A stretch of DNA of 64,000 nucleotides from a virus (IMGVR_UViG_3300042869_001157:2598-66597); one strand, 5' to 3'; numbered from the stretch's first letter, positions 23,701 to 45,700 are shown. The notes: generated by a model from the letters alone, not told the origin. Numbers and translations: made by a program.

Positions 23701-25970
23701 AGTCCAGAAGACTTACCGGCACAAATTTTGATGAAATGAGCGATGAGGAACTTGATAAAATTATCAATGAAGGAGATACATCTCAAATAGGTGGAAATCG
23801 TGACATTTATTTCTTTGGCGCAGTAGAAGAAAGAAATAGACGTAAGGGAATCAAGCCATTTAACTCAAATGATTTTGATTTTGATATTTCTCGTTTCTCA
23901 AATTCCTCAAGACCAACTTCACGAAGAAATAGTCGTCAATCACCTCCAGACAATCGCTTATTAGACAACGAATCAGGCACACGTTCACGTCCTGTCCCAA
24001 AAACATTCAATGACTATGTAGAAAACCCCCCACGTCAAGGGATGCGTTCACAATCTAGACCCAAACCTCCGCAATATCCTCGCAAGCCAACAATGGGTGC
24101 GTTCATCGGTTCTGCAGATTCAGAATTTGATGGAATAACAAATTGGGAAGATTTTAAACGCGTGCTTGCAGATAAAGAAATTGTTTTCATCGACTACGAA
24201 ACAACTGGTCTCAAATTCAATGAATTTAACGAATCAGCAGGAAATGGACTACCTACTCAAATAGGTGCCGTAAAAATGAAAAATGGCAAAGTCATTGACC
24301 GTTTCAACGTATTCGTCAACCCAGGAACACCAATGTCCCAATGGGAAAAATGGTCACAAGACAACCTGAAAGACGGCGACGGCAACCCAATAACTGACGC
24401 ATATCTTGCCGACAAACCCTCAATAGCAGAAGCCCATAAACAATTAGTTGAATTCATGGGCAATACAGAATTGATGGGTATGCAAAATGCCGTTTTCGAT
24501 AACGAAGTACTAGAAGACGCATTGAAAGATTCAGGAATTGATTGGCGACCCAAAGGCATTATCGATACTAAAGAAATTTCAGATATGGTTCTTCCAAAAT
24601 GGTCTGAAACAAATCAGAACGCCCCATTCAAGATCAACAAAGATGGAACAAAGTCACCATCAAACTCACTTGGAGATATAACAAAATATCTTGGTATCGA
24701 ACTTGGAGACAAACACCATAACGCAGACGCGGATGCCGAAGCAACAGCAAAAGTAATGCAAGGAATTATTGACGGTGCCATAGAAAACAACTGGCCCACG
24801 GACGTATTAGACAAGTCCAAACGACGATCCAAAGAGAACGAAACTAAAACTAAATTTGAAAAAGCAGTTGCGGCATTTGAAAGTGAAAAAGAAACTTTCC
24901 TAAATGACAGACCTTCTTCCAATGATGAAGGCGGCATGCGATCACGTACTGCAACAAAGCCGACTAAATCAACCACCAAGCGGACGCCTAAACCAAAAGC
25001 AGTTGAGCCACGCGAATATAGGAATTCAAATACCGAAAATCTTCCACAATCACGTGATTATTACAATGTTGAAGATATTGACAACGCAATGCGAGACATT
25101 ATCGATGATGTTTATTCTGGTGTCAGGGAACCACAAGACATTACGGACAGAGTTAATGCTTTACGTGATGAAATCAAAGAACTTGGATCATCGTCGGGCA
25201 TGCCTGATGACATGATTGAAGATTTGCTTGATGGTACCAAGACTGGGCCAATTGCATCCGAGGTCAATGATGTGGTAGGTGGATTTGAAAGATGGGGTGG
25301 ATTACGTTCCCGTTCCAATGTTGGATCAAATGCACGGTCCAAGGCCGGTGTTGCTGGAAGAATTATTTCATCTGAAAGATCACGTAAGGCATTAGAAAAA
25401 ATTGGTATTGATGAAGATAGAGCAGAGGCTGTTCAACTTCTTGGCGAAATGGCTGCAGCGTTCAGTATCAGTGGTCCTGCTGGCATGGGTACTGTTCTCG
25501 CTCGACGAGCAGGACGGGATGTTGCCGACTTTGGTTTAGCGGAAGCGGTAGAACGAGGCTGGATGAGTCAGGCGACAGCGGACAAGATTGCTAAGCGAAT
25601 GTTGGATCGTGTCGCCCCAGAAGGATTACCAGACGATATTAAAGATATTATTGAAAAAGGTAAGGATGCTGTCACTTCTGATGAAAGCAAGGCTAAGGCT
25701 GCTGAACTTTTAGACACCATTCGCGAAACTGTTCGCTCGGGTGGCATGCAACGTCTTGTGGATTCGGCGAAACAAAGAACCAGGGTCTTGACGGACATCG
25801 CTAAAGAACGTGGTAGAGAATTGGCGGCAGAAAAAATGCGTGAGGCTCGTGAAATAGCGAGGGATAAAGCATCGGAGTTGGCGGACGATGCAATGGACGC
25901 ACTGAAAGAGCGCGGCAAAGAAGCGGCAGGACGTCTAGTTGGTAGATTTGCAAGAAGAGGGGGCAGATAA
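17799..25970 (+). CDS. Giant multidomain protein (2723 aa): HExxH zincin, ART-like fold, DUF3626-like region, DEDDh 3'-5' exonuclease and GMRS linkers
   Basis: FHEFGH at about 19470 with a downstream EARAE. RVMFPAGSRG...VLLPPG at about 21420-21510. LVLKPEV...YEALVAGGVSLDDV at about 22470-22790. IVFIDYETTG...QIGAV...NAVFD...HHNADADA at about 24180-24740. About 6-7 GMRS-type linkers. Confidence 0.8.
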   Translation: MEPGMTGRGIPQRNKLSPRLNVPVRNYDGKAMYFRERQKFSLTQPYLDADIAVKVLAEGMVATGSGGDREMTGDDDQPAMAEFRFDPLARRQPGQVLKLHTTYKEATTPGDDHNWGWVDPEPELSDEDRLQLSEEAADFVSKRPQVIVRQFLVDKDGNETGETNEIAVKQLGPTINDMMPGQAIKLRKAIAKGIVIDANGQMRCPPGTPNANQFTDVDMSNCFNIGVGAVQKEIRRIRGFWKEWNEDVAAIRSARTAKERLGKAKENYTSLEQNAEWLARNEQSIQDAYETLGIDLSQFTPEQLKNNVHLFTAMDELFKNHDGPEFRRFLHDAIGFKWDDSKSVDENMKDYWETLRETAYKLVPEEVKKALLIDPSTKKPIYPDQYDEAQKIVDMMIDRFREVQEGIIHGALVSFNDNPQMFQTLREIGFDAWNGRVGLNEWMSYEGITNPITDELSPGRLGTQINFNTWALAFKPLIDLRKLEGEGRFEIDLKPVDAQGTPLSDIEKLKQIRDIIAHSNEVDHFIHGVGYANEQSSARASAVAGMSPAKAKAMHVMFHEFGHVLQYAEAQNAIIDYVNKHGQLVVTNNGALNVLTGDWRTWSNNDWYDALNTVMRGTFEGMNYPPVTVDWLEDSMLHLLAGQYYQDELGKWQRMHLSGGEGSPMLKNAQVGLMIQEARAELYALRQMGVISGPDIDKAIGGMDEVRRPPGIELASRPIYDAPTENISRLVPKSIFSDKRDLRRKPEYPPEVTKLVKKMKKENYTPEQILNELNAGDPENPKFTLDDVNNMIGDTGADDVPSDWKSPERENGIPKFDPANGIYADWSPDPNDDGKTRQAKLNQAIEDYAYSDEFLQDMEDAGFDQTDENHMGDFVGTKKYKEGLKKYQEKYGKPSSDSGNKTNEEGTSIPDETLPEPKKKRDIPAWDGQVDPFANDYSEVKLTDALIDDYTNTDYTIDELAERYDRTPEEVKAKIDLEQKLNGPIRSADYYAALKRGEWVNYRNPNEDDKYSDDSRGYRKYKDGIYPSEREYEIRKEGGKTQVRLRQIPSSEDTAPVTPASNPKEWGRQRRQEILNTTEPETVALLDGSIPPDKRTSTSSLSPRNIDTTLRNSMNARSKAKEEANTIAAPTPDAESPLLDEEIRDAVAPMLFHIDSHEFDEDMSVLMVIDLPENYEIGGGDFVNFEMPMRGVLPGRLQPKSSGNKRAVRVMFPAGSRGVIVGNSYNGDSDGVLLPPGRVSLIDVDENGVINAIIASQENPLETLKRMDGNIDDVSSAEGADDFIRGEASIVKAEIGRQIDKYANSERGRGMRSRSRGSSNDALTRRDQKQRNDSISSIMRRKNSAPFNVDNNFSARHRNPDGTALSTQWGDVVPREVHVDRRNNRVTASIGRMRNILNGDVAPSSESEFDFINNIDPRVKNLLNNRSPEEIRQLIDDAYVDFHKGFDDRVRIPMNDNTLNGMMSEGRLKAIQEIKPNSPISKLKSDHELFLGYDPEVSNNMRSISGYMVHRNAKNVISDHLDSIPSDGINRNPDFFHESGDIQPMGDVRIGGNDIDLVLKPEVASRSAYSRGEAIRSHNYPTPVLFDNPGDVGSAHLNESITSGNSDADRMRNITNALQNVIDNNFSGSLSDDISASRSERALRPGNKYEALVAGGVSLDDVAEIRYPVNKLDINNEKLDMNSSIGDSGRELLKVNGFGDGEIDEYLRMVDDGEVELQSARWLKQHRAAKKFETDFRKKNNFDGRIVFTNSDGIDLLSPETFREHPNSRGLQTVEQMLSARMLADMAPNMKKTLKAIKKSPDAQARIRSAQIGQNKKPNVDVPNAGSRINSIEDNEVDDIFNSLTDDLRNIAQGVDVEDRGMRSRSVPENLPPETFSYGDPENADVPGKKAFRDNSIYVTRNDDGTFNAYTIENYPGTELGYLRQVGNNNHESLAAAKNAANGRSKLSSSGRGMRSITGSNDSNAARESRRLTGTNFDEMSDEELDKIINEGDTSQIGGNRDIYFFGAVEERNRRKGIKPFNSNDFDFDISRFSNSSRPTSRRNSRQSPPDNRLLDNESGTRSRPVPKTFNDYVENPPRQGMRSQSRPKPPQYPRKPTMGAFIGSADSEFDGITNWEDFKRVLADKEIVFIDYETTGLKFNEFNESAGNGLPTQIGAVKMKNGKVIDRFNVFVNPGTPMSQWEKWSQDNLKDGDGNPITDAYLADKPSIAEAHKQLVEFMGNTELMGMQNAVFDNEVLEDALKDSGIDWRPKGIIDTKEISDMVLPKWSETNQNAPFKINKDGTKSPSNSLGDITKYLGIELGDKHHNADADAEATAKVMQGIIDGAIENNWPTDVLDKSKRRSKENETKTKFEKAVAAFESEKETFLNDRPSSNDEGGMRSRTATKPTKSTTKRTPKPKAVEPREYRNSNTENLPQSRDYYNVEDIDNAMRDIIDDVYSGVREPQDITDRVNALRDEIKELGSSSGMPDDMIEDLLDGTKTGPIASEVNDVVGGFERWGGLRSRSNVGSNARSKAGVAGRIISSERSRKALEKIGIDEDRAEAVQLLGEMAAAFSISGPAGMGTVLARRAGRDVADFGLAEAVERGWMSQATADKIAKRMLDRVAPEGLPDDIKDIIEKGKDAVTSDESKAKAAELLDTIRETVRSGGMQRLVDSAKQRTRVLTDIAKERGRELAAEKMREAREIARDKASELADDAMDALKERGKEAAGRLVGRFARRGGR

Positions 25971-28750: not shown

Positions 28751-29093
28751 TATGATTAGCCAAGAAGAGTGGAATCAAAAAATTAAACAACTCTGGGGGA
28801 CGACTTTAGTCTCAGTGAATAATTCAGATTTATCTATTGACGAACACATTAGTAGGGCTAGGAAACTCCAAACAGGAATCGACCCCCACGAAGCCAGACG
28901 CAAAAACAAAGCACAAGAAATCGCCGCAATCATGTCACTCCCAGGAAAAAAGAACTGGGTACGAGAAGACGATAAGCCATATTTTGAACTAATCACAAGC
29001 GGACTAATTAATTATCCTCCCGAAGATAGGCTAGACTTATTAGAGTTAACGAAATCTGATGATTTCCTCAAAAAATATATATCGGAGTTATGA
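28737..29093 (+). CDS. Hypothetical protein
   Basis: 118-aa ORF overlapping both neighbours in the operon. Confidence 0.65.
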   Translation: MRSNNMISQEEWNQKIKQLWGTTLVSVNNSDLSIDEHISRARKLQTGIDPHEARRKNKAQEIAAIMSLPGKKNWVREDDKPYFELITSGLINYPPEDRLDLLELTKSDDFLKKYISEL

Positions 29094-29734: not shown

Positions 29735-31758
29735 TGAACTCTTTTGAGATCATTAAACCAAGCAAATGCTGTCCTGATCAGCAGATTGTTGTTCAACGCC
29801 ATGTTCTGACAGCAAAAAATGTTGATGGCAATGCATTTGTTGGGTCTATTGCTTCAAAACAAGAAATAGTCAACTACAAAGCAATGGTGAAAATGCTTGG
29901 TCTTGGTGACAACTATCGAGTTAAACGTGTCGGCACCATCGGTTCATCTTCCACTATTGGACAAACGGCGCAGGCAGTCGGTTCATATTTCTTGCCTGGC
30001 GATACGTCAATCCTGAGAAGCCCTATTCGTTCAACCGGATTTTCTTTACTAACCCCAGGAACACCCAATATCCCCAGACTTCCTAGTATGCGCACTGGTC
30101 GCGACAAAGTCCATAGATGTCCTGAAGGATTTCAGTATGGCGGTCGTTTTACAGATAATCAGTTCACTACATGTGGAGCAAAATTGTTCGACATTCCAAG
30201 CCCTCTTGGATTAGCCATGTCTGCTTTGCGTGCGTTACGCAGGGGAACAACCCTGAAGCCCATTCCTGTAGAAGGAAGGGCATTGACCCCGGGAGAGTAC
30301 GGAGGATCAGTGATTGATTCTCGTGCACCACAAATCCCACGAGTTACAGATAGTGATGTCAAAAAACAACTTGAAAGTATTAGGCAAATTGTCAAAGACA
30401 TGAATCAACCGAACCTTGATGCCAAGAGAATGGTACGGCGTGACGGGTTCATTCTGGAACCAGTGGTATCTCCAAAAGTTTTGAGAACCATTCCCGATAA
30501 CCGTGACATGGAAGGGGCAGCATACATTTTAAATGCAAATAATGTTTCTACCCTCGGTGGCGAAGAACTTGGGTTGCTCTCAAATACTGGAGTAACCAAA
30601 CTTATGTACGTTTTACCTGGTGGATCAACACTTAGTTTAGAAAAAGTTAGACCATTAACCGTTGGTGAACGTCGCAAACTTGGTAGAACAGTCAATGCTG
30701 CCTCTCGTATTGATAATAGTCAGATCGCTGCGGCAAGACTGATGTCTGTTGCTGAAGAAACTGGTGACGGGATTCAATATTCTGAAAATTTTGTTGGTGT
30801 CAGCAACCCCCATAAGAGAATTGCTACAAGAAATGGCAAAATGGTTGAAAGTTGGGTTGGTCAAGTATTTGCCAACCGCAAAGGCAAGCCATTGCCCGAG
30901 ACGAGACAGACTTCTTCTGAGGCTGGCATTTCTGAAAAAATATCTTCACTTCAAGAAGCGATTGAGCATATTGCGGCGGGTGGAAGTCTTGCTTCTATTT
31001 CCCCCGATATTCTCCAACAGGCGCTTATTCAGGCTGGATTATTCAAAGCACGCAATATTGGCAATAATCAGAAAATTTTCGACGGACCCAATGGAAGATC
31101 GTATTTGTCTATTAGTCCTATTAATGATTTTGAACATTTGAACGCAACTCTCGTTTCTGATATTCAACAGCATTTTGGTATTGAATCTCCAGACGTTTAT
31201 CCATATGGCTCGGGTCCTCGTCGTTCATATTTGAAAGAAACTTCTGGGACTGTTTATCCAGGAAATGTGCCATCTACCAGCAAACTATTTAAAGATGGCG
31301 ACATTTCTCATGTGGCTGCGCTTTTAGTGTCCGACTTATTGATCGGTGATTCCAATAGGTCGCCCGCAAGCGTCGAAATTATAGAATTGTCAGACAAAAA
31401 TGCGGTTGTCCCGACCATCAACTTGCCCGATTTTACTGAGATTCAAAAGAAAATCAAGACCCCCGAAGAACTCATCAGACAAATGGCATCACTTGCTGAA
31501 AATGGCTCCTATCAGGAGTATTATAGAGAGTTGAAGAGTCAACAAAAAAGACAATTCCTTGCCATCATCAATAAGTTGCTAGCAAGAGCACGGGCTTTTA
31601 ATTTTGAAAAATATCAAGCCAGATTTGTTATTGATGGAAGATTGACCGAAGTAGAAAAAAGTCATTTACTAATAATGCAGAAGATAGTCAAGCAGAGAAT
31701 TGGCTCTCTGGAAAGAGCCGGAGATTTGATCCGGAATATACTTGGAGGATTTCAGTGA
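29734..31758 (+). CDS. Head-associated protein with an RCPxG motif and a degenerate HipA/PI3-4-kinase-like C-terminal domain
   Basis: RCPEGFQYGGRFTD at about 30115. C-terminal EHLNATLVSDIQQHFGIESP...DLLIGDSNRSPAS resembles the HipA-like D-x-LIGN-x-DRH motif. Confidence 0.65.
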   Translation: MNSFEIIKPSKCCPDQQIVVQRHVLTAKNVDGNAFVGSIASKQEIVNYKAMVKMLGLGDNYRVKRVGTIGSSSTIGQTAQAVGSYFLPGDTSILRSPIRSTGFSLLTPGTPNIPRLPSMRTGRDKVHRCPEGFQYGGRFTDNQFTTCGAKLFDIPSPLGLAMSALRALRRGTTLKPIPVEGRALTPGEYGGSVIDSRAPQIPRVTDSDVKKQLESIRQIVKDMNQPNLDAKRMVRRDGFILEPVVSPKVLRTIPDNRDMEGAAYILNANNVSTLGGEELGLLSNTGVTKLMYVLPGGSTLSLEKVRPLTVGERRKLGRTVNAASRIDNSQIAAARLMSVAEETGDGIQYSENFVGVSNPHKRIATRNGKMVESWVGQVFANRKGKPLPETRQTSSEAGISEKISSLQEAIEHIAAGGSLASISPDILQQALIQAGLFKARNIGNNQKIFDGPNGRSYLSISPINDFEHLNATLVSDIQQHFGIESPDVYPYGSGPRRSYLKETSGTVYPGNVPSTSKLFKDGDISHVAALLVSDLLIGDSNRSPASVEIIELSDKNAVVPTINLPDFTEIQKKIKTPEELIRQMASLAENGSYQEYYRELKSQQKRQFLAIINKLLARARAFNFEKYQARFVIDGRLTEVEKSHLLIMQKIVKQRIGSLERAGDLIRNILGGFQ

Positions 31759-34700
31759 ATCGTTACGCCCTATTAAAAGATTCTATTAATGACAGTATTT
31801 TTGGAGTAATCGTTGATAGTAACGGTCTCTCAAAATTCTATGGCGTAAGCGCCAAAGGGCTAGAATGGTCCAAGTGGGCCAACGGGATTAACGTTAAAAG
31901 CGAAAACAACGGTTTACCAATTGGCGTAGTGGTAGGCGGTTACTCGGCCCTTCGTAACACTAACCCCAACTATATTCAAGCACTCGTAGATACTGTATCT
32001 CTCCGCAATCCTTCAATCAATAAGAAACAAGGCATCTCTGATTCTTTGATCAAGAACTCTTCCTCGGTTGTCCCTGGTGTTCGTGACGCGGAATTGCGTG
32101 CATTTGACATCGACAAGCGTAATGAAGCCATTGCTTTCAAAGCGCGTGCATTCCGTACCGACTCCAAAGTTTCATCGTTGCTTACCCAGGTGCGTGCGGA
32201 GCGACTGGGATTTGTTTCAGCCGAAGGCGTATTCAGTTCACGTAACCCAATCCATACCCCTGAAGTGAAGCAAGCAGAAATTATTGATTCGTATGGTCGT
32301 TCTTTGCAGCGTGCTATTGGCTTGAGTCTTATTCGTAAGAAGTCAGCCAAGATGCTTGCTGTTGTCCGCAAGGATCAGGCGCTTGCTCAGTCTTTTGGTA
32401 TTGAATTCAAGGCGGCTGGCATTGGTCCGAAGATTGGCAGTCGTTTGGGTGGCGGTCTTCGTTCTGCTCCTGCTGGCATGTCTTTTGTTGACGTTACTGG
32501 TGTGACTGACGCTGATACTGACGGTATCGTTTTTGAAGGTAAGCCTGGTCTTGAGCGTCCGATTATTCCTCGTTTTATGGTTCCGAAGGACCTTGCTCGT
32601 AAGTTGTCTGGGATTGTTGATGGTGATGCTGAAGAGATTGAGAAGCAGCGTCGTGCCGGCAATACGAGTGTTCAGTTTGATGAAGGTAAGTTGCGTAATA
32701 TTGTTGCGAGTGTTGGTGGGGATGCGAGTCTTCTTCAGGCTGTAACTAATGATCGTGGTGTTCCTGCTACTACGACTTCTGGGCGTGAGCGTGTTTCTGC
32801 TGCTGCACGTAATGTTGCTGGCAATATTGCTTCTCGTCGTAGGGAGATTGCTTCGCGTCGTGGTATGCGTAGTGGTCAGCGTGCCGATCTTGGTGATGCG
32901 ACTCCGCTTTCTCCTGGTGAGTTGAATAAGTTGTCGGAGCAGGAGATCGTTGATCGTTTGATTGAGGATCGTTATGCTGGTTTGAATCTTGATGAGGCTG
33001 CGAAGAAGTATGGTTTGAAGGGTGGTCGTGTTGAGGCTCGTCGTCTTGAGGCTCGCGAAATGCAGCGCCGTAATAACCAAGGTATGCGCTCGCGGACAAC
33101 ACCTCCAGGAATAGTTCGCGAAGATTATTTCAACTTTGAAGAATATGATTTCAATGATCAGGTTGTTGACGCGATGGGGAACTGGATGGGTCGACCGGAT
33201 CAGCAAGAAATGCGCGAAAGAAGCGGTGGACTTGAGGCACTCTGGGAAGACTTCAAGAAGTCTGACGAATACCGCGACATGGAAGCCGACATGCTGGATG
33301 ACAACCTTAAGTTCAGTGGAGCAACTTCGGATAATCCGGTACTAGTCTCAACCGCAGGCAATGACCGTGGTCAGGCAGAAATCAAATATGACGGAGAAAT
33401 GTTCACTGTTGACGTAAGTTTATGGAATAACGAACAAGACGAACTTTTTGATACTCCAGAAGCCAAGAAAGAATTCGATAATCTGTCTGAAGCAGAAGAA
33501 TATGCATCGTCGCTATTTTCTGATGGCATGCGTTCACGTAACTTAAAAATGTCAGGTGCTCCAAAAGAAATTCAAGATTCTTACTCCGAAGATGACATTA
33601 AAAAAATTGAAAATTCATTACGTACTGGAGGTCGTCAGGAACTTCGCCTGTCGTGGGACTCAGAAAATAACGGTTGGATGCTTGATTCTTTTGATGCCGA
33701 CGGAGAAGTCTTTATTGAAGCAGACGCACCACTAGTTCGTTTAACTGATGCAATATCTGATGTTATTGCAGATCGATATGACTCAGAGGCATATGGTGGC
33801 GAACCGCCATACCTTAGCAATATGAATGAATTACTGCCCGATGAAGAAGATAGGGACGATAGTTGGATTAAAGAATATCCAGTTTCTGGTATGCGTTCAG
33901 TTACTGGTATTTCAGAAATGAACACTTCTGGCGCTCCAAAAGAATATGCAGATGCTCTAGAAAAATGGCGTGGCTATTTTGGCGAAACACCTACTCGTAG
34001 GAATAGAAGAACAGGAAAAGTAACTGAAAGTGAGCGGAATCACCCAGCACTACCTTCAGTCTATTGGAATAAAGAAAATGAATCGTGGGTGCTTTCGTTC
34101 GATGGCGAACCGACCGAATTAAGTATTTATTCTGACGATCCAAGAGAAGCAGCAAAGGCAGTTTCGGATATTCTTGAAACAACAGCAGATCGTTATCGTT
34201 GGGAAAATGAAGACAACTTTGGGGATATTAGCGATTTGGCAGATATCGGTGAGATGTACAGTGATGGCGACGGTAAAGATAGAACCGTAAAAATTACCGC
34301 TGGTATGCGTTCCAGTTCAGGAAACATTAATAGTTTTGACGACTATCTGAACCATCCCGCATTTGATAGAGATTTTGCTGAATGGCGCAAAGACAATCCA
34401 GGTAAAAATAAGAGAGATTTTATTGACGACCCAGACGGCGCAGAAGAATACTTCTCGCTTGGTATGGAAGAAGCAGGCGCATCCTTAAACCCAGAATCAT
34501 ATTTTGGCACTTCTGGCATGCGTTCACGTTCAGGTGGTATGCGTTCACGAGTTGGTGGTGGCAAATGGGATGGCAAGCGACCAGAACCACAAGACATTAA
34601 AGCAGGTGCAGACTTAAGCGGAGCGGACCTTAGTTATCAAATTTTGCGTCGTATTGACTTGAGTGATGCTAATCTAACTGGAGCAAATCTTGTTGGTACA

Positions 34701-37700
34701 AAAATTAATGGTGCTAATTTGAAAGGTGCAAATCTAACAGATGCCAACCTTAGTAGAACAGAATTGCAAGCCTCAAATCTTGTTGGCGCAAAACTTACTG
34801 GCACTGATTTCACTAGTGCAAACCTATCAAATGTCAACCTAACAAATGCCGACCTATCTTCCGCAAACCTGTATAGCACAATGCTTGATGGGGCAAATCT
34901 AACTAACGCAAACCTTCAGGGCGCAAACCTTCGCGGTGCAAAAATGCAAGCAACAAACTTGAACAATGCAAACTTAATTAAAGCAAACTTAACTGACGCA
35001 AATCTTACTGACGCAAAACTAATTGCCGCAGACTTAATTTACGCAGACCTACGAAAAGCAAAAATGATTCGTGCAGACTTGCGATTTGCGAACTTGGCAG
35101 GCGCAAACTTAACTAGAGCAAACCTTGGTACTGCAAACCTAAAAAAAGCAAATCTAGAAGAAGCAAACTTAACTGACGCAAACGTCACTGACGCAAATCT
35201 TACTGACGCAAAACTGGATAATGCAGTTTTAACGAACGTAAGAATGCCCAGAGACTGGATCATCAGCAATTTGGGCACTGCTGGTATGCGTTCACGTGGC
35301 TATCGTAATGACGATGATTCGGATTACGATAATGAGGATTACGGAGTTGACAGGGGAGACTGGGACGATGATCTAGACCCCGATGAGCGTCGACGCATCA
35401 TGGATGGTATGCGTCGACGTTCAGGTGGAATGCGTTCCAGGTACTCTGATGACAGTGCAGATGGCTACGCGGAAGCAGATGCGCCCGATCTTGATAGAGA
35501 AGATTACGAGAACTACATAGATACTCCTACGTTTGAAGAACATTTAGGTGAATGGCTCGTAGATAACCCGGGCAAGACTAGAGAAGATTTCATCAATGAC
35601 CCCGACGGTGCAGAACTCGCATGGGACAAATTTTTTGAAAACGATGATCCAAAAAAGTATTACGGCATTAGTGATGCTGAGTGGGCTGCCGCTTTCCGTT
35701 CACGTTCAGGGAACATAAATAGTTTTGACGACTATTTGAACCATCCCGCATTCGATAGAGATTTTGCTGAATGGCGCAAAGACAATCCAGGTAAAAATAA
35801 GAGAGATTTTATTGACGACCCAGACGGCGCAGAAGAATACTTCTCGCTTGGTATGGAAGAAGCAGGCGCATCCTTAAACCCAGAATCATATTTTGGCACT
35901 TCTGGCATGCGTTCACGTTCAGGTGGTATGCGTTCCAGTACAAAACCATTAGTGGAAGCAGAACTCCTAACTGGCGATGATCTCACGCGAGAACAAGAAG
36001 AAATGCTATTTGAAATAGTTTTCAATAATGGAGGTATAAGTGATGCCAGGCTAAACGATGGTGATTACGAAACTGGCGATTTGATGGAAGCAGCAGGTAT
36101 CAATTTATACAATATTCAGGTTAATGACGAACTTGCACAACGTATTGAAGACGCCATAGTTGAGCGCGATAAAAATTATAACCGTTACATGGGTAAAAGT
36201 TACAATAGAGATTATGCTAGGACAATTATTGAACGTTGGCAAGATTCTGTAAATGACGACCCAGATGAAATGTTTGACGCACTTTCTTTATATGAAGGCG
36301 ATTTAGTTGCCGCAATGGAAAACCACTACGATGAATATGTGTATAGCCAATTAGATACTTTTGAAAATAGCCGTGATGGCGGCATGCGTTCACGTTCAGG
36401 TGGTATGCGTTCCAGTACGCAACTACGTGGCAGGGACTTCAAGCGTGATGCCAATATCAGAGCCAATCACCTTGGCAAAGATGCTGAAACATGGCCAAGA
36501 ACAGCAAGATTGCAAGACGTAATCTATCCCGAGAGACCTTATTATGGTGCTCAAGACGTGAGTCGGTCAGATAAAATTATTCTGAGTGCTCCAAGTGAAA
36601 ATGGTGGCCCTGAAGGAAAAGTATATATCGCAGAGTTTGACGACGAAACTGGAACACTCACAGTCAGTTGGGGCAGGGCAGACAGTAGAAATCTTCAGAC
36701 AAAAGTTTATTCAGGTAAAACTGAAGAAGATTTTCACAAGTTATTACGAGACAAAGAAAAGCGTGGATATCGACTAGAAGGTGGTCATATTCCTGCCAAA
36801 TCTTCATCATATGACAAAGATGTTGATTGGAAGGCAGATCATGAAAAACAAGCCAAGATGGGTATGCGTTCCAGTACAGGGACAGAACAGCGCCCCTATA
36901 CGAATGTCCCAGTAACAGGTTCATCAGCATTGCGACAAGCAAGTTATAACGCAGAAAAACAAGAACTAGTTGTAACTTACGCGAATGGAAAAACATACAC
37001 ATACAAAAACTTTTCAAATGATGACTTAGATAATTCTCTATCTGGGCCCGACTATGTCCTGACGGGCACTGCAGTAAATCAGATAAAGAAAAATCACGAT
37101 TTCCGCGAAGGTGGAACACACACATTTGATCCTCAATATCAAGATGTTCAAGGTCCAGGTGGAGAATTCAGTGTAGAAAAACTTTCCCGCCTTGGACGTG
37201 GAGAAAAAACTCAAATTCCAGTAAGCGGTTCTTCAGCAATCGAAGCACTCACATGGGACGATGAAAACGAAGACCTTATCGTAACCTACGCAGGTGGACG
37301 CACATACACATACAAAGATGTTGACTCTTACTGGATCGAAGATTTAGAAAGAGAAACTGGCACTGGCCGAATTATCAACAACATCAAAAAAGAAGGTTAT
37401 CGCGTAGTCGATGGCGGTGAACATGGTGATATGCCAAGTGAAGGCCTAACGGCAGAACGCGCAGAATTCGGTATGCGTTCACGCATGGCTCCCTCGTCAG
37501 GCCGTATCCGTGCAGCAGAAATGGAAATCTCCGCTCGCCCACAAGGAATGGCATCACGTCGCTCCGAAGGCCTCAAAGACCCACGTTTCGCCGTACCAGG
37601 ACGCGACCGCGTTGACCCATCAGATGGACAACTATGGAACCGCCTATCAGACGAAGAAAAAACAACCGTTGCAAACCGTGCCGTTAATCGCGAAAGAATG

Positions 37701-39308
37701 CTTCTCAACGAGTTCAAGCAACGATTCCCAAGATGGTGGGATAGAGCAAGTAAGGAAGCAGACAAAAAAGGTTGGGACAAAGATTTGATGAAGGGAGGCA
37801 ACGCTGGATGGCTTGACGAATTGCACAGATTCGTTACTAATCTTGCTGATGATCCGAACTATCCAGAGAAGAGTAGAGCCGACGCGGAGAAGCAGTTCAA
37901 TGACCTGCAGGCCCTTTATAACATGAGAATCAACCGAGGCTCACATGACCTTCTAGAACACTTGAATCCTACTTCGCGACGCTACCTATTTGACGATGCT
38001 CGACGCGATGACAGTAAGAAAACTGGGATTTCTGCTAGCAGTAAAGAAATGAAAACACCTTCTACTGCACCACGCCCATTCGGTGATCCGATTGATGTCG
38101 GAACACCAATTCGTGAACAGGTTGGACAGAATCAAAAGAAGCCAATGAAAGAACGTCTAGACGCATACTACAAGAGAATGTCAGACAAGATTCTTTATTC
38201 TGATCCCGCACGTCAGGCTCGCCGCGAAATGCGTAAAGCACGACGTCAAGGCATTAACGCTGGAGGATTCACCGAAAGAGAAGCCAACCCAGTAGATGAC
38301 GCAAAACGTAAGATTCGTCGCCGCAAGCGCCTCAAGCAAATGCGCAAAAATCGCACACGCGACGTCAGCACCATCTCTGACTCATCAACAAGTAACCGTA
38401 TAGATGGACGCCTTGCTCACACCGATGGCCAAGGTTCATTAGTATTCGGAGATAAGTTGGCTTCAACTCTTTCAACGATGATGCAAAATTATCGTACAGA
38501 AGCAAAACTGAAGCAGACCAAGGGCGGCGTTAATAAGAATAGAGCCCTTGCTGTTCTTTGGGATGGTGCCGGATATAACGGCACACCAAACATTGTTACA
38601 CCCGATGAATTCAAAGCACTTCATGCAGCCGGCTGGGTCCCTGTAGTAAGAGGACATGGCAACGGTTCAAATGGAGTTCGTTATGCGAACGACTGGATTG
38701 ACGATCCCGTACGTTTCATCACAGGACAAGGCGGAGAAGCGCAAGGCGAAGGTGAATACTGGGCAAGGGCTACGCAAGGCGGTGGTGGCTGGTTCAGTTG
38801 GATGGATGGTTCATTGCCTGCAGGCACTGTAGGTCTCCTCCCTCCATCAACACGTCGTGTTAATAAGGCAGAGTTGCGTAAAATTCAAGCAGAGCATGCT
38901 CCTTTGGCGAAAGCAATTAAGGCTTTTGACGCAGGACTGCCGACTGGAGAACGCGAAAAAATGAATGCTGAAGAGTATGTGGATCAATTGCGTGATCATT
39001 TACGTGGCTCGCTTGGACCAATTTATGAATCAACAATGTCCACCAAGATGGGTCAGATGACATCAAAGATTTTGGAATCACTAAGTGGTTCTTCGGATTC
39101 CAAGAAACAAGAACTTCTTGATTCTTTAGAATTCCTTGAACTTATTAGTAAGAAGAGAACTTCTAACTCATATGCTCCGCTATTAGGCTACGATACAATT
39201 ATGGCTGATAGCGGCGTAGAATTGATTCATAACCGCACGGCAATCACTATCGTTGGTGATACATTCAAGAGAGATGACGCAGTCAATTTGGCTAAGTCGA
39301 AAGCATAA
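31755..39308 (+). CDS. Giant multidomain protein (2517 aa): pentapeptide repeats, WGR domain, two KTSC domains, a duplicated module, a C-terminal ART-like domain and about 16-18 GMRS linkers
   Basis: A(D/N)LxxA repeats at about 34590-35240. KVYIAEF..TVSWGRAD..KEKRGY at about 36615-36775. SSALRQASYNAEKQELVVTY and SSAIEALTWDDENEDLIVTY at about 36920 and 37230. Confidence 0.82.
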   Translation: MNRYALLKDSINDSIFGVIVDSNGLSKFYGVSAKGLEWSKWANGINVKSENNGLPIGVVVGGYSALRNTNPNYIQALVDTVSLRNPSINKKQGISDSLIKNSSSVVPGVRDAELRAFDIDKRNEAIAFKARAFRTDSKVSSLLTQVRAERLGFVSAEGVFSSRNPIHTPEVKQAEIIDSYGRSLQRAIGLSLIRKKSAKMLAVVRKDQALAQSFGIEFKAAGIGPKIGSRLGGGLRSAPAGMSFVDVTGVTDADTDGIVFEGKPGLERPIIPRFMVPKDLARKLSGIVDGDAEEIEKQRRAGNTSVQFDEGKLRNIVASVGGDASLLQAVTNDRGVPATTTSGRERVSAAARNVAGNIASRRREIASRRGMRSGQRADLGDATPLSPGELNKLSEQEIVDRLIEDRYAGLNLDEAAKKYGLKGGRVEARRLEAREMQRRNNQGMRSRTTPPGIVREDYFNFEEYDFNDQVVDAMGNWMGRPDQQEMRERSGGLEALWEDFKKSDEYRDMEADMLDDNLKFSGATSDNPVLVSTAGNDRGQAEIKYDGEMFTVDVSLWNNEQDELFDTPEAKKEFDNLSEAEEYASSLFSDGMRSRNLKMSGAPKEIQDSYSEDDIKKIENSLRTGGRQELRLSWDSENNGWMLDSFDADGEVFIEADAPLVRLTDAISDVIADRYDSEAYGGEPPYLSNMNELLPDEEDRDDSWIKEYPVSGMRSVTGISEMNTSGAPKEYADALEKWRGYFGETPTRRNRRTGKVTESERNHPALPSVYWNKENESWVLSFDGEPTELSIYSDDPREAAKAVSDILETTADRYRWENEDNFGDISDLADIGEMYSDGDGKDRTVKITAGMRSSSGNINSFDDYLNHPAFDRDFAEWRKDNPGKNKRDFIDDPDGAEEYFSLGMEEAGASLNPESYFGTSGMRSRSGGMRSRVGGGKWDGKRPEPQDIKAGADLSGADLSYQILRRIDLSDANLTGANLVGTKINGANLKGANLTDANLSRTELQASNLVGAKLTGTDFTSANLSNVNLTNADLSSANLYSTMLDGANLTNANLQGANLRGAKMQATNLNNANLIKANLTDANLTDAKLIAADLIYADLRKAKMIRADLRFANLAGANLTRANLGTANLKKANLEEANLTDANVTDANLTDAKLDNAVLTNVRMPRDWIISNLGTAGMRSRGYRNDDDSDYDNEDYGVDRGDWDDDLDPDERRRIMDGMRRRSGGMRSRYSDDSADGYAEADAPDLDREDYENYIDTPTFEEHLGEWLVDNPGKTREDFINDPDGAELAWDKFFENDDPKKYYGISDAEWAAAFRSRSGNINSFDDYLNHPAFDRDFAEWRKDNPGKNKRDFIDDPDGAEEYFSLGMEEAGASLNPESYFGTSGMRSRSGGMRSSTKPLVEAELLTGDDLTREQEEMLFEIVFNNGGISDARLNDGDYETGDLMEAAGINLYNIQVNDELAQRIEDAIVERDKNYNRYMGKSYNRDYARTIIERWQDSVNDDPDEMFDALSLYEGDLVAAMENHYDEYVYSQLDTFENSRDGGMRSRSGGMRSSTQLRGRDFKRDANIRANHLGKDAETWPRTARLQDVIYPERPYYGAQDVSRSDKIILSAPSENGGPEGKVYIAEFDDETGTLTVSWGRADSRNLQTKVYSGKTEEDFHKLLRDKEKRGYRLEGGHIPAKSSSYDKDVDWKADHEKQAKMGMRSSTGTEQRPYTNVPVTGSSALRQASYNAEKQELVVTYANGKTYTYKNFSNDDLDNSLSGPDYVLTGTAVNQIKKNHDFREGGTHTFDPQYQDVQGPGGEFSVEKLSRLGRGEKTQIPVSGSSAIEALTWDDENEDLIVTYAGGRTYTYKDVDSYWIEDLERETGTGRIINNIKKEGYRVVDGGEHGDMPSEGLTAERAEFGMRSRMAPSSGRIRAAEMEISARPQGMASRRSEGLKDPRFAVPGRDRVDPSDGQLWNRLSDEEKTTVANRAVNRERMLLNEFKQRFPRWWDRASKEADKKGWDKDLMKGGNAGWLDELHRFVTNLADDPNYPEKSRADAEKQFNDLQALYNMRINRGSHDLLEHLNPTSRRYLFDDARRDDSKKTGISASSKEMKTPSTAPRPFGDPIDVGTPIREQVGQNQKKPMKERLDAYYKRMSDKILYSDPARQARREMRKARRQGINAGGFTEREANPVDDAKRKIRRRKRLKQMRKNRTRDVSTISDSSTSNRIDGRLAHTDGQGSLVFGDKLASTLSTMMQNYRTEAKLKQTKGGVNKNRALAVLWDGAGYNGTPNIVTPDEFKALHAAGWVPVVRGHGNGSNGVRYANDWIDDPVRFITGQGGEAQGEGEYWARATQGGGGWFSWMDGSLPAGTVGLLPPSTRRVNKAELRKIQAEHAPLAKAIKAFDAGLPTGEREKMNAEEYVDQLRDHLRGSLGPIYESTMSTKMGQMTSKILESLSGSSDSKKQELLDSLEFLELISKKRTSNSYAPLLGYDTIMADSGVELIHNRTAITIVGDTFKRDDAVNLAKSKA
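34316..35935 (+). repeat. Near-identical 231-bp direct duplication (34316-34546 and 35705-35935) of one linker-bounded module
   Basis: Both copies encode SGNINSFDDYLNHPAFDRDFAEWRKDNPGKNKRDFIDDPDGAEEYFSLGMEEAGASLNPESYFGTSGMRSRSGGMRS with only a few synonymous differences. Confidence 0.92.
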
Positions 39309-39709: not shown

Positions 39710-42700
39710 ATGAAATCTACATCGTCCAGCACATATAAGAAGATGCGGGCGTTGCGGGAAGCCCAAAAATTAGGTTGTTCTGGCGCTCATCAAAATAGCG
39801 ATGGCCGCTGGATGCCTTGTTCTTCGCATGACAAATTAACTCAAGTCGCCCCAGTGATTGCTTCTGCCAGTAGGGATGCCATATCTCAAAATCGTGGAAA
39901 AAGAACCCTAAAGGGCTCTAACAAGATTAAGAAACAATGGGAGAACCTCGGTCAAAGTGGCATCCTCAATTTAGGCAACGTCGCTGGCGGCGGGTTAGTG
40001 GCTGGTAGTCCTACAGGGAATTTTGGTGGAGATGCTGCTGGCATGAGCGCCAAAGCATTACCCAATATTTTTGGTCCACGCGATCAAGACGTTGATGTTT
40101 TCACTGACATTGAATCTGCCAGACAGCGTTCGCGTCAATTAGGTTGCGTTGGTGTTAGTCGACGCATCTCCAAAACTGGAGCGACAGTCTGGATGCCCTG
40201 CACAAACATGTCTGATTATTCGTCGCTTGCTGGAACAACCAGCCTGGGCAGACGTCATCAAAAAGAACGTTTAGAGCGAGTCATTAATGCCGCCATTGAA
40301 AAGAAACTAAAAAAGAACAATAAACGTAATAAGAAATCTCTTGCTGGTGATATCAATTTCAAAGCACTTGGCGGTGGCTTGGGTGGAAACCTGAACCGTC
40401 CTGCATTCTTTGATCCCAACGCATGGGACGGAGACAACGACGGTCGCGTACAAGACAACACGCCATTTGAACGCCCATCCATTCCTGGAGTCAACGGACT
40501 GCCCGTGAGTGGGATGAGAAGTGTCAGTAAACCGAGACTGAACATAGATGAAGCGCAACGGGAAAGCATAGAAAGCGGCGACACCGCATTTGATGAACTG
40601 GTACTTTCTAAAAAAGCAAAAAAGTATGCCCGAAAATATTTGAAATTATTTGAATCAACTTTTGAACCAATTGATGAAAAATATCGCTATATGGACGATG
40701 ACGAAATTATCGATCTAATCAGAAGTAGCATGCCCGCATCTGCCGAAGAACTAAAACAATTAGTCCGCACAAATCCATTCACAAAAAACAAAGCAAGAAC
40801 TGCATGGAGCCGACTCATGCAGGCAAATCCAGACTTTGAAGCAACAGCCAAAATGCGTGATGCTTTCATTAAGCAAATCAAAGATAACCCTGGTGTTTTG
40901 GAAATGGTTCGTCGTTATGGCGTTCCACCAATTGTGGCCACAGAGTATGTTCCAGCATTGGCCTGGTATGGCAATAACACTGAAGGGTGGGGTGAAAGCG
41001 GTGGCGGCTGGGCCCATCTTGGTGTCATAGCAATGAACTATACGTGGGTTGAATTCGATCACGGGATGTCAATCGAAGATGCTGTACGCCACGAAATGGG
41101 TCACGCGTGGGAAGCAATGGCTGCAGTTCAAAATGATAAAGCAAGAGCACATTACGCTTTACAATTTTCTGAACTTTATGAAGGACTTATTCAAATGTCC
41201 AGGAATAAGGAAAAAGCATCCTCCTATCACGACGCCAAATGGGGTAATGAATCAGAGCATGCCTCAGCAGCAAAAATATCTGAGTATGCAACGACAGCAA
41301 GAATTGAATGGTTAGCAGAAACAATTGCTGCCCTAACTAGTTCCGACCCAAGTAAAAGAGCAAAAGTTGATGCTACTGCTAAAGAGAATATTAGCGAATC
41401 ATTCGGCATTGCACCTTGGGAAGTTGAACAAATATTCACTCCCATAGATGGTTCTGGAGGTTTTGCTAGCAGAATTTCTTCTTTGCCAAACAAACGTGAT
41501 TTAGATAACCCAAGTTTGAGTGATTTTCTTAAAAAAAGATATGAAATAGATGAAGATTCATTATCAGAATCTATGAAATGGGTTGAAAAAAATCCTGAGT
41601 ATTTATCGGATATGTCGCTATCCGTCCAGTTATCTTCCTCCCCAGGGGTTCAGAGTCAATACAGGCGATCAGTCGTTGAAGGATTCAGGTCATATAACTC
41701 ACAGGGACGCCAAGGTTCTGGTGGTAGAGAAATGGGCCAAAAAATACTCGGGCGTGTCAACCCAGAAGAATCCAATCAAGACGAACCAACATTATATTTC
41801 GTTGGTGGCACTACCGGTTCCGGAAAATCGACATTAGTAGCCAGAGGGGTAATGGACGGTGTGCCAAATCAAAGTTCTGCCGCGCATATTGATCCCGACG
41901 AAATAAAAACAGGGTTAGTTGGCTGGAATGGCGGGCAGGGGGCCAGTGCAGTGCATCAAGCCTCACGGGTTGCCACCGACAAAATCATGGATGATGCCGC
42001 ATTACAGCGAATGCATATGGTTGTCCAGGGTACGGGCAAGCGTCGCGAACATCTAACCAATATGCGCAGACGAGGATATAAGACTTCAGGTCATTTTGTG
42101 TGGATTCCTGATGATCTCGCAGATCAAAGAGTTGCGGAAAGGAAACGTAACGGCGGAGCGAATATACCGACATATTTTGGTTCGCAAATTGCGAGAGAAC
42201 TTAGAAGTGGGCCTGATTCTGTTTCTCGTCAGATAACTGACGGTCTTTATGATGAATTTTTTCTTTACGATAACAGTGGAGATGTCCCAAAACTTGTAGC
42301 CAAACGTTTAACGGATGGTTCGTTTGAAATATTGAATAATCAGGTGTTTAATTCTTTCTTTAGTCCAACTGGGGCAAAGTTTGTTCGTGATTATTGGGAG
42401 AGTAACTCTCCATCAAATAAAAAGAATTTAACCCGTACCGGAATGTCTAGCAGAAGAGGTCTTTCTTCGATGGGTGACAAAGTTGGGATGCGATCACGTC
42501 GTCTCGGCGAATGGGAAGATGTAACTGATTACGACAAATTTGGTGAATCAAGTATCGCTTTAAAAAATACTTATGGTGAAGATAGTCTGCGTGATCTCTC
42601 AGAAATTTTGGAAAGCGAACAATCATCTATTAAGAAAGCAATTGCGCATTGGGAAAAAACTGGTGAATGGCTTGGTGAAGATTTCAATGTTTCTATGCCA

Positions 42701-45700
42701 AGAACACCAAATGCGAAATCTGGAATAACAAAAAATCATACTGCCGAAAGTCTGTTAAAAAATCAGACAAAAGAACAAATGAAAAATAACTTTGATTTGT
42801 ATTTAAATAACATTGATGCTCAACTAAAGCATGTTCGTGGGCGACTAAAGAATATTGAAGAAATAAATAATGGCGCTGAACCATTGCACATCAATTTTGC
42901 TACTTTGCGTGACATGCCGGATTTTGATGCTTTAGTAAAACGTGGGAAAGAAATTAATAACTTGAGATATGGAGACGAAAATCCACTTATTTCAGATGAT
43001 TATATTTATTTAACACATACTGGTCATCCAGAACTTGAAAATGGCATTCTTGACCCCAACTTTAGCCTTGACGCTGGTGGTGGAGGCATCCCTGGTCGTG
43101 GATCAATGGATACAAAACGTTTAAATAAAGTCGGCAGGGACATGATTGTCCGAAAGTACGAAACGGCAGAGAAAGACCTGACCGCATGGCAGGAAGTTGT
43201 TGATCATTTTAGTAAAACTGGTGAATGGCGTGGAGCAAAATTGGCTAAATCACTTCAATTGGGAGCACAAAAACCCACTGGAAGAATTTTTAATGACTAC
43301 AGTGCCGATGATTTAGACAATAAAATTTCTTCAGAGTACCTTCTTGATCAAGCATCCAACAGTATTGACTTCAACAAAGAAGTTCTTCAAAGATTAAGCA
43401 AGCAGTACGGTCCTGCTAAACGTAATGAAGAACATTTAAGTTACGAATTTGCTGGCAGTGGACCAAATTTTGGTTATAGCCGACGAGACACCCCCAGCAG
43501 TAAGACTTATCTTGTAAGAGTTCCTCGCGATGAGGCAACTACAGAGGCTGGACCGTCCACAATGGGGGAATTCCAAGTTTTCGGTCAACTCAAACCTGTT
43601 GCTTCATTTGAATTCCCAAGCAATATCAATGATTGGGACACCAACGCTGCCGCTACTGCTTATTTTGAAAAAATAGCGTTAAAAAATGAAGGAATTGCCA
43701 CTTCTGGTATGCGTTCACGAAATCAACTTGGACAATCTATAGAAAAAGATGAGATTTTCGGAGGTTCAGTATTCTCTGGATTCACTCCACGAAATCCGCT
43801 TACAACAAGGGACCTAAACAACAATAATTTGCGTATGGCAGAAATGATTTCGATACATGTCGACCCTCGTATTGATTTCAAAAACAGAAACATGGATTAT
43901 GCAAACCTTACAAGAGCACATTTGGGTGGAATTGACTTAACAGAGTCATCGTTGTTTAGTTCCAACTTAAGTAATCTCAATGGTTCTGGAGTCATATTTG
44001 GCAAAACAAATTCCAAACCTGCTGATTTACGTTACTCAATATTGAGTGCAGCACAAATGCCAAATTCCCAATTTGAGGGAGTTGATTTATCTGGCGCACT
44101 AATGATTTCAACAAATTTCAACAAAGCGAATTTAAAAAATACCAATTTTGAAAATGCCGTCTTATGGAATTCAGATTTTCGTGGTGCGGATTTGCGTGGA
44201 TCGAATATTACCGTAGAGCAGTTAATGAATTCAAAATTTGATTCAACAACCAAATTGCCTGAAGGTATGTCGTTGCCAATTGCGGAGAATAATGGGACCA
44301 ATACGCAAAAACCATCAACTCACAAGATTCCTCTTGGTGTTATTGGCAACGATGATGCCGATTTGCTTCGTAAAAATCTTGTTGATGGTGTTTTGAAAAT
44401 TGATGGGCCGCTAGATGCCAAGAAACTTGAATTATTACGTAGAAATTTGAGTAAATCAGAAATTTCCAATACTGATTTACGACGATCAACCTTTAATGAA
44501 AGCACTTTTTTTAATTCAACAATGGCAAATGTGGATTTAACTGGAAGTTCTTTGTTTAAATCAAACTTCAATAAGAGTACATTGAACAATATAAAATTTA
44601 ATCATGCAAATTTGGTTGGTGCTAATTTTAGAAATGCAATAATTGGTCGAAATGTCTCATTCAAGGGCGCAAATCTTACTGACGCAAATTTTGCTGATGC
44701 TAAAATACAAGGCAAGATAGACTTGTCTGGTGCCGATCTTACCGGAGCGATATTAGATGGTGTGGATTTGCGTGATGCCATAGTTGATAGTCAGACAAAA
44801 CTTGATGGCGCTATTGGTCTTGACAGGAATAAAACACCTAAAATGGTTGTCCGTGGTTTGAGATCACGTAATTATTCTGATATGTCGACAGAAGATTTAA
44901 TAAATACTCCAGGCAATGTTCTTTTGTCTGATGCCAATGATGCATTGCTAGAAATTGGCAAGATGAGTAATGCCAAGCGTCCAGATGCAAACATTGATCC
45001 CCTAGTATCTAAAATACAAATTATTTATGGACATCTTAATGATGTTCCTGGAATCAATGAAGATTTCTCTATCAAGAATTCTGAGTTAGATAATCAAATA
45101 TCTGCAGTAAATAACATTATTGATCAGTTTGGAACATTCAAATTCGGTGATGGACAACCCATAGATGTTAGAAAATTCATTGAAAATAAAGATAAATCAG
45201 GATATGTCAAGGCAATTAAGTCTTCTGGACAAAATGTTCCACTCAGTATTCCAATTAATGAGTGGAATAAAATAAATTCTCAATTAATTGCACGCGATAT
45301 GTTGAATGATCGCAAAGAATTGTTATCTCCAACAACAAAGATAGTTAAAAGTAAACTGAATAGTTCTGTTGCTACAGAAGCGATGCTTTCTGACTATGGA
45401 ATTATGAGCAATATTAATAATCTTCCAGATTTTTCAATCGCTGAACCGATTCGTAAGAAGCGACCAACGCCTTCAATAGCCAGTGGTGAACTTGGGCCAA
45501 ATGAAATGTTGATTTATAACTCCAATAACCGTCCAACAATTTCCAAAATACCTAAATCACAAAGAATTGAACAATCGATCAATCGTGTAAACGGTATGGC
45601 GAGCAGATCGAAGCCAACTTCTGAAACAGGGAGAGCAAATAGGTCAGAAGAAATCTATAAAACTGTTTCTGATGCACTCATTGCAGCCCTAGAGGAATCT

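Follow-up and report, generated by a model that had tools for sequence, protein, structure and literature searches.

In-frame linkers as sites of module gain, loss and reordering in the giant polyproteins of an uncultured lake-water phage

The locus described here raises the question of whether a short peptide linker that recurs through four giant phage genes marks the points at which protein modules are exchanged and, if so, whether the DNA of the linker itself drives the exchange. The window (the whole stretch analysed, 64,000 nucleotides [nt]) is 64 kb of a 66.6-kb IMG/VR virus record (IMGVR_UViG_3300042869_001157:2598-66597; CheckV completeness, 44%) from an uncultured lake-water phage, and 24 lake-water metagenome runs hold the stretch. 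Between its portal and major capsid genes lie four giant open reading frames (ORFs) totaling 11,179 amino acids (aa), to which the motif G[MLFV]RS is confined (n = 50, of which 38 are GMRS; extended consensus, [R/G/S]-G-M-R-S-R-[S/T]-G). Polyprotein 3 (2517 aa, 31755..39308; Pfam matches to pentapeptide repeats and KTSC) holds a duplicated cassette from which an earlier note on this DNA argued that modules are gained, lost and reordered at the linkers, with the linker DNA serving as the microhomology that lets this happen. The first part of that claim can be seen directly in related genomes; the second may be right, but the identity of the linker DNA may merely have been left by exchange. The portal, capsid and polyprotein genes, with their linkers and modules, are all on the plus strand.

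Comparison with close relatives provides the most direct evidence. Contig G001 (99% identical) is collinear with the window except for an in-frame gap of 477 base pairs (bp) that removes a single module, module X (152 aa, 35945..36380), which is placed elsewhere in other alleles. The junction lies inside a 41-nt tandem linker (GMRSRSG-GMRS, two linkers with no module between them) that flanks X on both sides, at 35904..35944 as the left repeat of the indel and at 36381..36421 as the right repeat. Similarly, L102 (92–98% identical) is without a 95-aa module (11956..12240) flanked in the window by two exact copies of a 14-mer of linker DNA, and the junction is inside the 14-mer. The modules at 6616-7155 are missing from both L102 and L103, with junctions 20–35 nt from a linker. 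Against the less similar G003 and G004 (86–93% identical), which have the same architecture in this region, the modules differ in order, copy number and content: the units at 7396 and 7669 are in a changed order, the module at 7156 is present twice in G003, window positions 33074-35282 are replaced by ten other modules, and a 53%-identical version of module X is located upstream in G003. A 196-aa module of polyprotein 1 (11368..11955) sits in polyprotein 2 of G003, where it takes the place of two window modules; at 74% identity, this comparison shows movement of a module between genes (ORF1/ORF2). A separate observation is that the module at 9964-10569 is 71% identical to its G003 counterpart as compared to 96% for both neighboring modules, and is probably an allele swap bounded by two linkers.

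The earlier note had proposed asking whether breakpoints map to the 14-mer. Among 23 merged breakpoints against four related contigs, 11 fell within a linker, 16 within 10 bp and 20 within 25 bp, as compared to null fractions of 2.3%, 5.1% and 9.2%, respectively (p = 3e-18 at 25 bp), and two were exactly in the 14-mer or the 41-nt tandem. Breakpoints were defined as merged ends of high-scoring segment pairs inside the giant ORFs. The count excluded ends that coincided with the end of a contig or locus, as well as cross-hits between paralogous copies of the leader domain (6311-6546, 32448-32684), of the duplicated cassette and of the pentapeptide repeats. Also excluded were ends outside the giant ORFs (the terminase intein at 1109/2280, 16358-16711, and beyond 47000).

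Public sequences extend this picture. A search with the leader domain described below recovered 32 public giant proteins, named no further than "hypothetical" or "YjbI pentapeptide", which were split at their linkers and their modules clustered; the allele clusters contain 2–9 contigs each. For polyprotein 3, nine alleles gave nine module orders. Its layout is conserved at the head (N-terminal anchor and leader domain) and at the tail (153-aa, KTSC and 612-aa modules); the shuffled middle is made of shared cassettes in permuted order whose lengths are constant across contexts (71–88, 121–138, 134, 152–154, 180 and 264–266 aa). Nine alleles of polyprotein 1 gave eight or nine orders, with a stable backbone and two hot zones. 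Judged across these genomes and alleles, cassette shuffling at the linker is shown.

Whether linker DNA contributes depends in part on how unusual it is. In the window's lineage it is nearly uniform (ATGCGTTCACG, plus the 41-nt tandem form). The GMRSRSGGMRS tandem linkers noted at 34515 (34515..34555, 41 nt), 35904 and 36381 are all present, and a diverged fourth lies at 35406 (GMRRRSGGMRSR). The 14-mer recurs exactly at the 11 positions claimed for it (7156, 7396, 7669, 9964, 11956, 12241, 15385, 33525, 34515, 35904 and 36381), every one on the plus strand, and at none in 100 shuffles; from codon usage, 0.49 occurrences would be expected for the 27 GMRSR peptides (binomial p = 6e-13). The claim that synonymous variants exist also held, as GGGATGAGAAGT (40511) and GGCATGCGAAGC (13345) still encode GMRS. 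Background usage, proposed as the test of linker codon choice, does not explain the linker codons, in which CGT and TCA are enriched: linker Arg is CGT in 38 of 50 cases (38% in the background) and linker Ser is TCA in 31 of 50 (24%), and the linker Gly codon tracks background usage. The pair CGT-TCA was found in 31 of 66 linker Arg-Ser dipeptides and in 11 of 88 elsewhere (odds ratio 6.2, p = 3e-6), and because it is so rare outside linkers, codon-pair context does not explain the bias. The 38 GMRS 12-mers have a mean pairwise identity of 0.831, as compared to 0.724 in a codon-usage simulation (z = 8.5), a value reached in 0 of 1000 simulations. The same linker DNA also flanks cassettes unique to G003, with CGT in 10 of 10.

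The duplicated cassette itself bears on how this uniformity arose. The 231-bp module reported to occur twice, at 34316-34546 and 35705-35935, does so with 227 of 231 positions matching, and the repeat, in which the tandem linker is included, extends to 248 nt (34299-34546 and 35688-35935, 96%). Copy 1 (34302..34546) consists of a linker, a 70–71-aa module and a tandem linker; copy 2 (35691..35935) consists of an AFRSRSG linker, the same module and a tandem linker. The diverged third copy that had been placed nearby corresponds to an 88-aa member of the same module family (35427..35690) with 40% identity over 60 aa to both copies. All four differences between the copies (34322, 34328, 34347 and 34364) are synonymous, since both copies encode one and the same peptide from SGNINS to GGMRS. 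The differences are confined to the first 49 nt; over the final 182 nt, which take in the tandem linker, the copies do not differ.

An assembly artefact, which the earlier note had raised against itself, does not account for the duplication. Both copies are present in the independent IMG/VR contig G001. In Logan contigs from lake-water runs not flagged as the source, the left end of each copy, bearing its own single-nucleotide polymorphisms (SNPs), is contiguous with its own upstream context, and the shared 180-nt piece has a depth of 15.3 as compared to ∼9 in the flanks (run X9), or about twofold. No single contig or long read covers both copies, Logan contigs breaking at repeats; none of the runs' Logan contigs spans the whole stretch, and no joints were reported. 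The gaps in coverage of runs X18 (35940-36367, flanks at depth 35–42) and X14 (about 35512-35939) were not used as evidence of absence, and the loose ends of Logan contigs at 35276, 35903 and 36397 are matches of about 20–30 nt that may derive from other linkers.

A pattern emerges when the copies are compared between strains. At 34478 and 34538 and the paralogous positions, both window copies have C and T, and both G001 copies have A and A. One of these two strain-specific sites is in the Gly codon of the second linker: the window has GGT there in each of its three tandems, and G001 has GGA in both of its own. Agreement between the paralogues of one genome, combined with differences between the orthologues of two genomes, is the pattern left by gene conversion or repeated exchange. 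Alleles P0017 and P0019 retain the 88-aa and 71-aa modules as neighbors, and because P0017 has both the "88-aa then 71-aa" and the "71-aa, tandem linker, pentapeptide" adjacencies, both of which are kept in the window, the duplication seems to have arisen when two architectures sharing the 71-aa cassette underwent exchange.

The explanation that we favor, and consider probable, is that these genes encode cargo polyproteins of the capsid module that are cut at, and shuffled via, their linkers. The region would be part of an array of such polyproteins, a phage form of the polyvalent protein, in which each giant protein would begin with an anchor or leader part and continue as small, mostly unrelated modules split by x-G-M-R-S-R-[S/T]-G. 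The S78 prohead protease encoded at the start of polyprotein 1 would recognize the linker, so that the prohead could take up the chains, whose modules would be freed by cutting and delivered together with the DNA. Because the same in-frame linker brackets every module, any linker-to-linker exchange stays in frame and allows whole modules to be gained, lost, duplicated or moved, and close relatives show that such exchange has taken place many times over, inside single giant genes as well as from one to another. The uniform linker DNA would supply short homology for recombination and be kept uniform by the same copying (concerted evolution), which the strain-specific variants partly bear out. 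A Rad52-type annealing protein and a PD-(D/E)XK exonuclease, both with genes next to that of the terminase, may act in this exchange, and the 231-bp duplication would be a by-product of exchange between two architectures sharing a cassette. For the causal role of linker DNA identity in particular, we regard the chances as even.

Several findings weigh against that causal role, and they also make up much of the case for a rival explanation in which selection is only a filter: recombination would be illegitimate or fall within homologous modules, only whole-module products would survive, and linker DNA identity would be a passive residue of recent ancestry. We consider this rather unlikely as the whole account. 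Two of the four junctions examined sit 20–35 nt off the linker. The breakpoints at 20753 and 20970, in a collinear divergent patch, have no linker anywhere near them. When the window is compared with G003, orthologous linkers drift at a neutral rate (four-fold sites differ in 26 of 104 cases, as compared to 116 of 480 in the flanks; p = 0.9), and linker DNA is thus under no site-by-site constraint. Uniformity is only slightly higher for linkers in variable zones (16 of 25) than for those in stable zones (9 of 24), a trend that does not reach significance (p = 0.09). On the other side, two junctions are exactly within the shared 14 or 41 nt, unrelated cassettes of different genomes carry the same linker DNA, and paralogous copies and tandem linkers share strain-specific variants. 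In addition, the modules that flank uniform linkers are unrelated, and co-duplication therefore cannot account for the identity of the linkers.

More distant relatives sharpen this question. In lineages whose protease is 76–86% identical, the orthologous positions are occupied by different linker peptides (G-M-S-S, S-T-R-S, S-S-R-S, G-S-K-S-T-T, G-F-S-S-S, G-F-A-S, S-L-R-S-S-G, G-L-S-S-G and [FL]SSGR, read from polyprotein ORFs downstream of the protease in L111, L116, L128, L133, L141, L147, L150, L154 and L166). Across these dialects the fourth linker residue is always Ser. On the protease tree, the STRS, GFSS, GFAS and GMSS dialects each form one clade with 100% support, a pattern that relatedness alone could yield. 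In 12 of 17 tests on these lineages, linker DNA did not exceed the uniformity expected from codon usage; z was 2.3–3.2 for L141, L133 and L147. Blocks of similarity nevertheless often end at or near linkers, including in STRS-group lineages with heterogeneous linker codons. The STRS-lineage breakpoints, imprecise at 70–86% identity, are suggestive and were left out of the statistics. Because relatives with heterogeneous codons also show block boundaries near linkers, selection for whole modules contributes, and DNA identity, as far as these comparisons go, helps but is not required for module-level mosaicism. We conclude that the linker peptide is the selected object across the family. The uniform DNA is most simply taken as a trait of the window's clade, one that frequent recent copying from linker to linker has left behind and that in turn makes such copying easier.

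If the peptide is selected, what does it do? The linker is probably the cleavage site of the phage's own S78 prohead protease, an assignment based on gene context and motif distribution. The protease domain (4861..5400; Peptidase_S78, PF04586, E value 6.8e-11, 43 bits with a cut-off of 21) occupies the first 175 residues of polyprotein 1 (3658 aa, 4861..15837), fused to 23 linker-separated modules, and also matches PHROG 3244 head maturation protease (E value 1.3e-13); a sequence search found no solved-structure relative. It is fused to polyprotein 1 in the window and is a separate ORF directly upstream in L111, L116 and L133, and the confinement of the motif to head-module genes further supports a protease site. 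HK97 gp5 is cut between Lys103 and Ser104. The constant Ser at the fourth linker residue is consistent, by analogy, with a P1' Ser preference such as that described for the SPN3US prohead protease (PMC10052503).

Not all observations favor this assignment. The protease is 84–86% identical between lineages with different linker motifs, so that a change of specificity is not evident. The capsid protein is without G[MLFV]RS, and across 6 lineages no co-variation was seen between the linker motif and the capsid's candidate maturation region (NGRT-SFKS), a result that weakens the assignment without excluding it. The model of the leader domain was of too low quality to support a fold search (AlphaFold2, 22 sequences; mean predicted local distance difference test score, 59). 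Separately, capsid residues 62-67, a linker-like string in the presumed delta domain (46893-47200), are G-L-Q-G-M-S in the window and G-M-R-D, G-L-R-E or S-F-R-E in relatives, and do not follow each lineage's own dialect.

The absence of the motif from the capsid protein would be expected if the linkers were not cut at all, the giant proteins staying whole and the motif acting as a flexible hinge or as a short docking or nucleic-acid-binding element rich in Arg and Ser; some plasmid polyvalent proteins are described as transferred at full length (PMC5512222). We think this unlikely. Relatives use the non-basic G-M-S-S, G-F-S-S-S and G-F-A-S at the same positions, and the conserved property is therefore the Ser at position 4 rather than charge. 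Moreover, the motif is found strictly in head-module genes, one of them fused to a protease, and a hinge function would hardly explain tandem linkers that have no module in between.

If the linkers are cut, the S78 protease may not be the only candidate enzyme. By analogy with the polyvalent proteins, for which MPTase has been proposed as a processing enzyme (Iyer et al., PMC5512222), the zincin-like MPTase that ends polyprotein 4 could do the cutting instead, and a host protease could also be considered. The MPTase-PolyVal domain is present (PF18818, E value 7.9e-43), and the lack of co-variation with the capsid maturation site would fit an enzyme other than S78. Across the family, however, the protease gene is either part of the first polyprotein or lies immediately upstream of it, and linker motifs are clade-specific on the protease tree, with the caveat about relatedness given above; we judge cutting by another enzyme to be improbable. 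Finally, codon- or translation-level selection or codon-pair context as the source of the uniform DNA, with the duplication or variants as assembly artefacts, is very improbable and largely refuted: CGT and TCA are already the commonest or near-commonest Arg and Ser codons and short-read assemblers can mis-join at repeats, but non-linker Arg-Ser rarely uses the pair, the linker Gly codon follows the background, other lineages show no such bias, assemblers use k-mers longer than the 14-nt repeat, the same architecture is seen on more than one contig (in G003 and G004 here, and in the public clusters), and the two cassette copies carry copy-specific SNPs.

A bolder form of the cut-and-shuffle explanation, which we put forward tentatively and think may well be wrong, is that the linker is a dual-code element: a cut site at the protein level and an att-like in-frame junction at the DNA level, which would make the array a self-shuffling, integron-like store of injected effectors whose ∼50 sites evolve in concert with the protease and so give the clade dialects.

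The remaining modules and genes provide the context for these proposals. Polyprotein 1 has Pfam matches to S78 and KTSC. Polyprotein 2 (2723 aa, 17799..25970) has 6 linkers and an RNase T-type exonuclease module (RNase_T). In polyprotein 3, the 249-aa pentapeptide-repeat module (34551..35282; Pfam E value 3.7e-52) is a mobile cassette found at other positions in other alleles; when the modules of this protein were searched singly against Pfam, KTSC was the sole significant match, and Sigma70_r4, DUF6434 and WGR fell below the cut-off. Polyprotein 4 (2281 aa, 39710..46555) has 5 linkers with heterogeneous codons and is collinear in relatives; it contains DUF3721, a Zeta-toxin-like NTPase, pentapeptide repeats, ArdC-N (PF08401, E value 6.4e-25) and the MPTase-PolyVal domain. 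By Pfam, it alone carries the polyvalent signature domains ArdC-N and MPTase, which polyproteins 1–3 are without. Judging by their domain matches, several modules look like anti-defense factors (ArdC-N with a metallopeptidase, pentapeptide DNA mimics, a Zeta-like NTPase and an exonuclease). From the position of these genes in the head module, we infer that the polyproteins are delivered into the host with the DNA.

The leader domain (∼100 aa) has no Pfam family. Copy 1 (6253..6615) precedes the first linker of polyprotein 1, and copy 2 (32400..32780), 76% identical to it, is in polyprotein 3; the domain was not found in polyproteins 2 and 4, and it lies at the N-terminus of the relatives' polyproteins. 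An alignment of 22 sequences gave the invariant pattern GGGLR[AS]A...VD.TG..D.D.DG.VFE..P..RPIIPR, whose opening G-L-R-[A/S] is linker-like and retained in every linker dialect.

The gene order is terminase, portal, 3658-aa ORF, 631-aa ORF, 2723-aa ORF, three ORFs without family matches, 2517-aa ORF, 2281-aa ORF and capsid. The large terminase (807 aa, 3-2423, minus strand) carries a LAGLIDADG intein; its insert of ∼390 aa (about 1110-2279), with LAGLIDADG and Hom_end matches indicating an intein or homing endonuclease, is missing in G003, L102 and L104, and the G004 terminase has 434 aa. The portal protein (2702-4741; PF04860, E value 4.7e-45) and the HK97-fold major capsid protein (46893-48200; PF05065, E value 4.3e-47) place the polyproteins in a head-assembly context. 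Five sizeable ORFs without a Pfam or PHROG match or a linker motif (15891-17786, 25970-28750, 29090-29734, 29734-31758 and 48489-51197) are interleaved with the polyproteins and kept in G003/G004. The closest cultured relatives of the capsid protein, at 45–49% identity, are from actinophages (Brevibacterium phage Cantare and Gordonia phages). The gene holding the duplicated cassette had no nucleotide match in the GenBank phage collection.

Genes that could serve linker exchange are close by. A Rad52/Rad22-family annealing protein (60.6 bits) adjoins the terminase just outside the window (G000:C1:1452-1859, minus strand). In the 125-kb contig G004, positions 56944-58547 encode Rad52 followed by a PD-(D/E)XK (Cas4-like) nuclease, with a RuvC-like resolvase further on, which together form a phage recombination module. 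The same contig (L189) encodes a 2210-aa collagen-repeat protein and nine consecutive 2OG-Fe(II) oxygenase paralogues (100626-107258 and 108786-118847), as well as a glutathione peroxidase and several glycosyltransferases. Its ORFs of at least 100 aa gave no match to a DNA polymerase at an E value of 1e-4 or less.

If the favored explanation is true, this family packs a large, rapidly re-sorted set of small effectors into the capsid by one rule, the same short joint between modules, which would explain how many anti-defense proteins can be carried without extra regulatory signals and how repertoires diversify quickly between near-identical strains (18 alleles gave 17–18 architectures). It would also suggest how a protease and ∼50 sites could change together. 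The linkers offer a natural rule for dividing giant phage ORFs into functional units and a design principle for engineered capsid cargo. The family is abundant in lake metagenomes, with 514 relatives of the protease and 389 of the capsid protein in IMG/VR, in addition to the 24 lake-water runs.

In the literature searched, mostly by paper listings, we found no description of repeated cleavage-type linkers serving as recombination points in phage polyproteins, and three known systems share parts of this one. On their domain content, the giant genes have what defines polyvalent proteins, namely several unrelated domains per polypeptide in a phage context, the latter given by the terminase, portal and capsid genes. 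As in the polyvalent proteins described by Iyer, Burroughs, Anand, de Souza and Aravind (2017, PMC5512222), giant multi-domain phage proteins combine unrelated conflict-type domains (ArdC-N, MPTase and Zeta-like NTPase) in a late or virion gene context. In that paper, an embedded peptidase is predicted to release separate units and mosaicism is noted for a Helicobacter prophage protein, but no conserved inter-domain linker is described (the word "linker" occurs 0 times), and the assemblin-like peptidase is placed always at the C-terminus, unlike the protease of the window's family, which is N-terminal or in a separate upstream gene. The window phage further differs in having ∼50 repeated sites in four genes of 11,179 aa and direct population evidence of cassette exchange at those sites.

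Prohead proteases of the Glu type also have L/I-X-E as a motif. Those of the T4, phiKZ and SPN3US kind are described as cutting after Glu (A-X-E), whereas the window phage has an S78, HK97-type enzyme and a G-M-R-S motif. The likeness is to the internal and ejection proteins that such proteases process (T4 IPI-III and Alt with gp21; phiKZ and SPN3US with gp175 and gp245; PMC10052503): these are head-module proteins with a short motif, of which several per substrate are possible, and the cargo is ejected into the host, as we would predict here from the genes. In the cases described there, N-terminal propeptides are removed from single proteins, rather than many cargo modules being separated from one another (PMC10052503).

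At the DNA level, the likeness is to PeSL shuffling in T4-type phages (Arbiol et al. 2010, PMC2839356), in which, as described, short conserved repeats bracket non-essential units, and recombination explains insertions, deletions and replacements among close relatives. The window shows the same arrangement: short conserved repeats bracket variable units, and indels between close relatives end in the repeats. Unlike PeSLs, which that account presents as intergenic promoter-terminator cassettes, the window's repeat is in frame, encodes G-M-R-S-R and shuffles protein modules rather than genes. By this analogy, the linker system would work like PeSL shuffling without being a member of that class, and PeSLs would be its closest analogue at the level of DNA.

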